The translations under genes were made by a program, and so were the position numbers. A stretch of DNA of 63,927 bases from Thermoplasmata archaeon (GTDB lineage Archaea; Thermoplasmatota; Thermoplasmata; Lutacidiplasmatales; UBA184), in the NCBI GenBank assembly GCA_022750455.1, contig JAKIVR010000004.1:1-63927 (forward strand). Direction: 5' to 3'. Below are positions 57,656-58,355 of this stretch, in pieces. Under the pieces are notes generated by a model that saw nothing but the letters and a program-made list of their open reading frames with translations, was not told the origin of the DNA and ran no database searches. Numbering within the stretch: the first letter of the stretch is position 1; every line of letters begins with the position of its first letter.

Positions 57656-58342
57656 ATGCCGCGAACAAGGTGCAAGGGGATTTTCGCGCGGGCTGACGCG
57701 GTGCTGGCAGCCGCGGTCCTGGTCGTCGCGTGCTTCCTCTACCTCTCGGCCGCGGGCCCGACCGCGGCGGCCCCCCGCGACTGCTCGAAATCCACGGCCG
57801 CACCGCAGACGGTCGCACCGGGTGGGGAATCGCCCTCTCGCGCCAGTTGCGTGGGCGTCCGGGCCGATGCGGCCAACAACTGTACGGGGCCCGCCACCGC
57901 GCCCGAAACCGTCGCAGCGGGCTGGAACGCCTCCTTCCGGGCGGGGTGCTACGATGCCGCGGGGAACCTGATGGGAGGCTCGGAGCTCATGTACCTGGTG
58001 GGCCACAACGGGATGCTGTTCGCTGCCGTCGGCTACTGGGAAGATTCCGCCAACGTCTGCTACGGTGGCAACAATTCGAGCGAGGGTTGGGGACAGATCC
58101 TACGTCTGGACCAACCGAACGGACACTGGGCGGTGGATCTGAACCTGACTGGGGTGGTCCGGCCCGAGGTCCTCAAGTCGGTGACGTTCACCACGAACGC
58201 GGAGGGGCAGCCTCTGAGCAAATCCGTCACCCTACTGGTTTCAGGAGGTTATTCGACCACCACCGGCGACGTCGACCTGTACACCCGAAACGACCCCGAG
58301 ACCACGATTCGAGTTCGGCCCGTTCGTCCGGTGTCAGCGTGA
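57656..58342 (+). pseudogene. Secreted protein gene, probably 3'-truncated near 58295
   Basis: Signal peptide and propeller-like sequence ending abruptly at LYTRND; the remaining codons are read from a copy of the unclassified repeat. Confidence 0.5.
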
Positions 58343-58355
58343 TTGGAAGGGCAAC
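58319..58355. repeat. Unclassified repeat, copy 4 (partial)
   Basis: CCCGTTCGTCCGGTGTCAGCGTGATTGGAAGGGCAAC aligns with reverse complement of 42838-42878 (CCCATTTCGTCCGGCATCGGCGAAGTGATTGGTAGGTAAC) and with 41571-41612. Confidence 0.65.

Follow-up and report, generated by a model that had tools for sequence, protein, structure and literature searches.

Two families of insertion sequence, IS630 (of the IS630/Tc1/mariner superfamily) and IS701, are the closest described systems to the locus analysed here. For the IS630 family, a CTAG target and a 2-bp TA duplication are listed in Table 1 of PMC2577343, and in that table the entry is credited to Tenzen and Ohtsubo (1991). Elements of the IS701 family are recognised by an IS701-type DDE transposase, by inverted repeats at their termini and by a short target duplication (4 bp). 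The locus at 58.3 kb combines remains of both and is of a known kind: a dead IS630-family end fused, most likely by deletion, to a gene fragment, with a later IS701-family insertion.

The window (the whole stretch of DNA analysed, 63,927 nt) is contig C64 of a 2.16-Mb assembly that comprises 129 contigs and has a GC content of 67%. The features discussed below are as follows.

57656..58294, plus strand: 5' fragment of a secreted-protein gene; 213 codons comprising an N-terminal membrane/signal segment and the first conserved block, from a parent family of ~500 aa
58289..58295, no strand: junction zone of two truncated genes; (A)ACGAC at 58289-58294 fits both parents
58295..58417, minus strand: probable IS630-family relic; outer terminal inverted repeat (reverse complement GTGCCTAGTAACATTATTGGGCGATAGTATAA...), 5' leader and the first 25 transposase codons (IRVALPITLTPDERAELESWSRGR)
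58418..58419, no strand: TA flanking the relic end, inside CTAG; target plus duplication of the IS630 family
58421..59879, plus strand: intact IS701-family insertion sequence of 1459 bp; CTAG duplicated at 58417-58420 and 59880-59883; transposase at 58469-59764
41546..42966, no strand: Fic cassette with three repeat copies; a comparison set only, not part of the 58.3-kb feature

The gene fragment and the two insertion sequences

The ORF at 57656-58342 (plus strand) encodes 228 aa and has a hydrophobic segment at its N-terminus. A paralogue of 543 aa is encoded on the minus strand of another contig of the same genome (C74:9775-8144; L001 = G000:C74 8144-9775). By BLASTP, the two proteins are 50% identical over residues 1-213 of the window protein, up to ...LYTRND in the window and ...LFTRND in the paralogue; past TRND there is no alignment, and 320 further paralogue residues are unmatched. 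When the paralogue was used as a tblastn query, the window was matched only to nt 58294, and no C-terminal remnant of the gene was found in the whole assembly. After codon 213 the ORF runs into an unrelated tail of 15 codons (58295-58339), which is followed by a stop codon.

A database search returned more than 200 homologues of the paralogue, of ~450-550 aa, from Thermoplasmata, T9SS-tailed Bacteroidota and Planctomycetota. The window protein is 58% and 55% identical to two homologues (P0003 and P0007). In an alignment of seven sequences, R211 and D213 (window protein numbering) are invariant and each homologue extends ~300 aa beyond the TRND block; the final 15 residues of the window ORF (PETTIRVRPVRPVSA) have no counterpart. 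The full-length architecture of the family (~450-550 aa, running on after YTRND) is therefore not that of the window ORF, in which homology stops at residue 213 of ~500. The sequence-only reading had held that the ORF loses its protein character after LYTRND, and this was borne out, with homology ending at residue 213, or nt 58294. It had also proposed a BLASTP search for longer homologues; all of those found extend past YTRND, so a natural end at this length is excluded. Judged by homology, the 57656 ORF is a 5' gene fragment (a pseudogene) and its truncation is real.

The ~500-aa secreted family was given no name by Pfam, NCBIfam or PDB sequence searches, and a few sources mislabel it as 'poly(A) polymerase'. 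It has two members in this genome and was found in 0 of the 40 nearest relatives. An exact-protein look-up of the truncated ORF (57656-58342) returned no record.

The DNA past the breakpoint has a different ancestry. Window positions 58289-58417 gave the best match in the genome to a profile of IS630 ends (nhmmer, 58.2 bits, E 1.3e-15) that was built from seven copies in other Thermoplasmata MAGs, with the window row left out. In a DNA search of the 40 relatives with 57900-58420 as the query, a contig from a genome of the same genus (G004:C17) matched window positions 58291-58407 at 69% nucleotide identity (E 3.5e-5), and the match was limited to the DNA past the breakpoint. In G004 this DNA begins an ORF, and the encoded protein has HTH_32, HTH_23 and HTH_29, which are typical of IS630-type transposases.

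More copies were located in Thermoplasmata MAGs with a conserved 18-mer (TTATACTATCGCCYAATA) that is present in both the window and G004: a single MAG has four of them, each at the end of a contig, and L034 is complete and lies inside its contig. The L034 element is 1187 bp long (5705-6891), with inverted ends GTGGAGTG... and flanks C-TA...TA-G, and its transposase of 369 aa scores 240.6 bits against NCBIfam IS630 (cut-off 100) and E 1.2e-21 against Pfam DDE_3. The 25 codons of the relic match this full-length transposase at 64% over 25 aa (tblastn), and across relatives the N-terminal codons are 58-64% identical over 25-26 aa; the DDE_3-type catalytic domain, which together with an N-terminal HTH region characterises transposases of the family, is absent from the window. 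On its minus strand the window reads TGA-GGIRVALPITLTPDERAELESWSRGR where relatives have M-R-V-A-P..., so that ATC stands in place of the start codon ATG, with an in-frame TGA a short way before it.

The outer boundary of the relic was examined in an alignment of the window with the seven outside ends. All agree as far as ...CAC-TA-G and diverge immediately outside it, which is the behaviour of a transposon terminus. The window reads CAC-TA-G at 58415-58420; a single end survives, and with the opposite end deleted the TA duplication itself is not visible. C-TA also flanks each of three more copies in this genome. No second relic end was found in the window or the genome, and the body of the insertion sequence, the missing part of the relic's parent, is absent from the rest of the assembly.

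The end sequence and the 25 transposase codons of the relic match full-length IS630-family members of other Thermoplasmata, and the relic terminus is followed by TA inside CTAG, as in the classic target of the family with its 2-bp duplication (PMC2577343, Table 1). Unlike an IS630-family element, the relic lacks one end and the whole catalytic domain and has a mutated start codon; at ~123 nt it amounts to ~10% of a ~1.19-kb element, and it is dead. These comparisons argue strongly that an IS630-family insertion sequence on the minus strand left its outer end, now decayed, at 58295-58417, and that this end is fused at ~58289-58295 to the 213-codon 5' end of the secreted-protein gene.

The genome also holds a second, multi-copy IS630-like element (C72:14484-14621, C50:1-135 and C100:1-115), to which the relic is only ~63% alike. 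Its copies have identical ends, TA/GTGTAGTGTCCTTTAATTG..., and it terminates three contigs, with its body missing from the bin. C42:25411-26448 carries an IS630-like transposase gene that is complete and distant.

The second insertion sequence of the locus is intact. Its transposase (58469-59764) scores 428.8 bits against NCBIfam IS701 (NF033540; cut-off 150) and E 1.7e-84 against Pfam DDE_5, and its inverted repeats (58417-58433 and 59867-59883) are perfect over 17 nt when CTAG is counted and 13 nt when it is not. Two other Thermoplasmata MAGs contain seven ends of the same element, and these diverge immediately beyond (C/T)TAG, where TTCTACTG follows on the element side; the element proper therefore occupies 58421-59879, with CTAG duplicated on both sides. 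It shows all three features by which the IS701 family is recognised and nothing unusual, and it is present as a single copy in this assembly. The CTAG that it hit is the one containing the flanking TA of the relic, and it landed exactly at the relic tip. An IS701 insertion further on from the break had been noted previously and is correct, but the distance of ~65 nt given for it is not, as the element lies 122 nt beyond the break.

The same IS701 element, with identical terminal sequence, is multi-copy in the DAHXNZ01 MAG, where it is found at five contig ends (L051, L057, L058, L064 and L069). In a third MAG it occurs twice, ~600 bp apart, within a contig of 575 kb (CAWISZ010000004.1; L062 and L067).

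With these assignments, the annotation of the 57656 ORF would change to a 5' gene fragment (pseudogene), that of 58295-58417 to an IS630-family relic and that of 58421-59879 to an intact IS701-family element.

Origin of the junction

The secreted-protein homology ends at 58294, the alignment to the IS630 profile begins at 58289 and the transposase tblastn alignment reaches 58290. The paralogue reads ACG CGG AAC GAC / ACC ACC where the window reads ACC CGA AAC GAC / CCC GAG, and the 5-6 nt (A)ACGAC may be a microhomology. Each partner is broken off at a non-specific internal point: the left half of the junction encodes R-N-D of the secreted protein, and the right half, in antisense, encodes S-R-G of the transposase. 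The rearrangement breakpoint that the sequence-only reading had placed here is present, at 58294/58295, but the CCCG end of a repeat, which was offered as its marker, is not what marks it, since CCCG falls at about codon 25 inside the IS630 transposase gene, in antisense. The same CCCG start had been taken for a transposon end or recombination site, whereas the true end of the relic is on its other side, at 58417. Coding sequence on either side of the junction accounts for the likeness of GAAACGAC/CCCGAG to GAAAACGT/CCCGGG at the Fic locus.

The most likely cause of the junction is an ordinary illegitimate-recombination deletion, an event that we infer together with its size and the microhomology. 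In this history, the target of an IS630-family element would have been a CTAG either within the secreted-protein gene or downstream of it, and the inserted transposase gene would have faced back toward that gene. A single illegitimate-recombination deletion, possibly assisted by (A)ACGAC, would then have taken ~900-1000 nt from the 3' part of the gene, any spacer and ~90% of the insertion sequence. The relic would have decayed further, including the change of its start codon, and the entry of the IS701-like element at the relic tip would have been a later or an independent event. Searches for the undeleted parental arrangement did not find it in the 40 relatives, from which the gene family is absent, or in genome and metagenome collections; metagenome scans with the pre-junction sequence and with a relic-specific 26-mer gave 0 hits each.

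The junction could in principle be an assembly artefact, a chimeric join at 58294/58295 between a gene and a relic that are not truly adjacent. The assembly is a 129-contig MAG in which insertion sequence copies break contigs, and metagenome scans and the exact-protein look-up found the junction in no independent assembly. However, the two sides share at most 5-6 nt, which, going by the behaviour of de Bruijn assemblers, would be too little for a mis-join in a k-mer graph, and the relic is unique and diverged from the multi-copy IS630-like element, which leaves no repeat to mis-thread. Of the two missing pieces, the 3' part of the gene and the body of the insertion sequence, neither is at any contig end, and there is continuity with the surrounding island in GC content and in the IS701 insertion; a chimera is accordingly improbable. 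It is less probable still that a transposase made the truncation, by one-ended transposition or abortive gap repair of an IS630-family element. One true end of the insertion sequence is kept, and internally deleted copies are left by interrupted gap repair among cut-and-paste elements of the Tc1/IS630 superfamily, but gap-repair products usually retain both ends. Here only one end is present, without a second in the window or the genome, and the breakpoint lies inside the insertion sequence and inside the gene rather than at a terminus or a TA.

A further explanation involves the repeat that flanks the Fic cassette: 58295-58355 would be a diverged fourth copy of it, with a CCCG end that acted as a transposon end or recombination site (TCGTCCGGT-type) and caused the truncation. 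The stretch does lie exactly at a real breakpoint, and 58313-58350 is the best non-self match of an nhmmer profile of copies 1-3, at 10.8 bits and with an E of 0.023 for the window alone. However, E for this match is 0.79 genome-wide, and with a two-arm profile 58312-58350 scored no more than 8.1 bits (E 3.8 genome-wide), a score shared by an unrelated site on contig C119. The match to the three-copy profile spans 38 nt of a unit of ~100 nt (95-125 nt), and against arm 1 the same stretch agrees in 26 of 34 columns, with two gaps. As a single pair (Smith-Waterman), 1 of 1000 dinucleotide shuffles reached the observed score; with the genome-wide correction left aside, this count and the E for the window alone are mildly unusual, but that impression is removed by real sequence: 139 of the 63,042 genome tiles (136 nt each) score at least 28 against an arm, where the observed scores are 28 and 27.

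The IS630 assignment, on the other hand, accounts for the whole of this stretch, motif included, and the part that resembles the Fic arms is conserved transposase coding sequence: TCGTCCGGTGTCAGC is the antisense of CTG ACA CCG GAC GA (L-T-P-D-E), for which other copies read CTTCCGGAGTCAGC. The IS630-end profile returned nothing at E below 10 on the Fic cassette, so the two are not one family, and the CCCG is ~25 codons inside the transposase gene and not at an element end. A fourth copy that caused the truncation is thus highly unlikely. The sequence-only reading had counted 58319-58355 as such a copy; the likeness that it saw exists, but similarity above chance was not confirmed, and the profile search that it suggested gave no significant match genome-wide. 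By these scores, the Fic-arm likeness at 58313-58350 is at background level and is a chance match.

The Fic-flanking repeat

The three copies of the repeat lie at 41546-41670, 42780-42905 (reverse-complemented) and 42874-42966, and their mutual matches have E values of 1e-18 to 1e-35. The arms are absent from the 40 relatives, and the conserved arm core (TGGTGTTCGTNGGTTGGACAG) gave 0 hits in a scan of a genome-contig collection. The repeat is a one-locus feature. As it is confined to one locus, the apparent fourth copy should not be used to argue that the Fic-flanking repeat is dispersed as a mobile or recombinogenic element.

The repeat and the relic have in common a short motif, TCGTCCGG(T/C)(G/A)TC(A/G)GCG...TGATTGG, over the ~26 of 34 columns that agree. 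At 58.3 kb the motif is antisense coding sequence; the Fic arms lack a counterpart in other genomes. Were the shared motif of 25-35 nt (TCGTCCGGY.TC.GCG..TGATTGG) not due to chance, the arms might be very old, heavily decayed derivatives of an IS630-type 5' end, which would make the Fic cassette a MITE-like carrier of a passenger, or the motif might be the target of an unknown recombinase. In both cases the relic and the Fic loci would be linked mechanistically, but this has very little probability compared with a chance match.

Short matches to the Fic arms in the relatives (22-28 nt, E 0.005-0.09 per genome) formed no coherent alignment and were treated as chance. A 62-mer searched for in the window, exactly and with three mismatches, matched only itself. 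The possibility that copy 1, copy 3 or the relic lies within a tRNA or an Rfam RNA was rejected, the window having only tRNA-Arg and tRNA-Val. At the right edge of the Fic cassette (42868-42925), arm 2 and copy 3 stand back to back around a CCCCGGGG centre. The imperfect palindrome that occupies these positions, of ~2 x 50 nt (CCGGACGA...TCGTCCGG), could fold as a long hairpin.

Genomic setting

A tRNA-Val gene is present at 55497-55570, and from there to the end of the contig the GC content drops from ~70% to 54-62%. The genes beyond the tRNA encode secreted and unknown proteins and are accompanied by two insertion sequences. Inside the window there is no partial repeat of tRNA-Val of the kind that bounds an integrated island. 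The stretch 55497-63927 is a lower-GC, variable, element-rich region that begins at tRNA-Val, in which scars of this type are expected. Nested insertion of insertion sequences and deletion, in a low-GC variable region beside a tRNA gene, are routine in the dynamics of prokaryotic genomes.

CTAG is rare in the genome as a whole (0.41 per kb), and occurs 12 times in the 8.4 kb of 55497-63927. Directly downstream of the IS701 element is an ORF of 345 aa (59983-61020, plus strand) that has no Pfam or NCBIfam match. Upstream of this ORF lie the AT-rich end of the relic (58380-58416) and the IS701 insertion, and its native promoter may therefore have been displaced.
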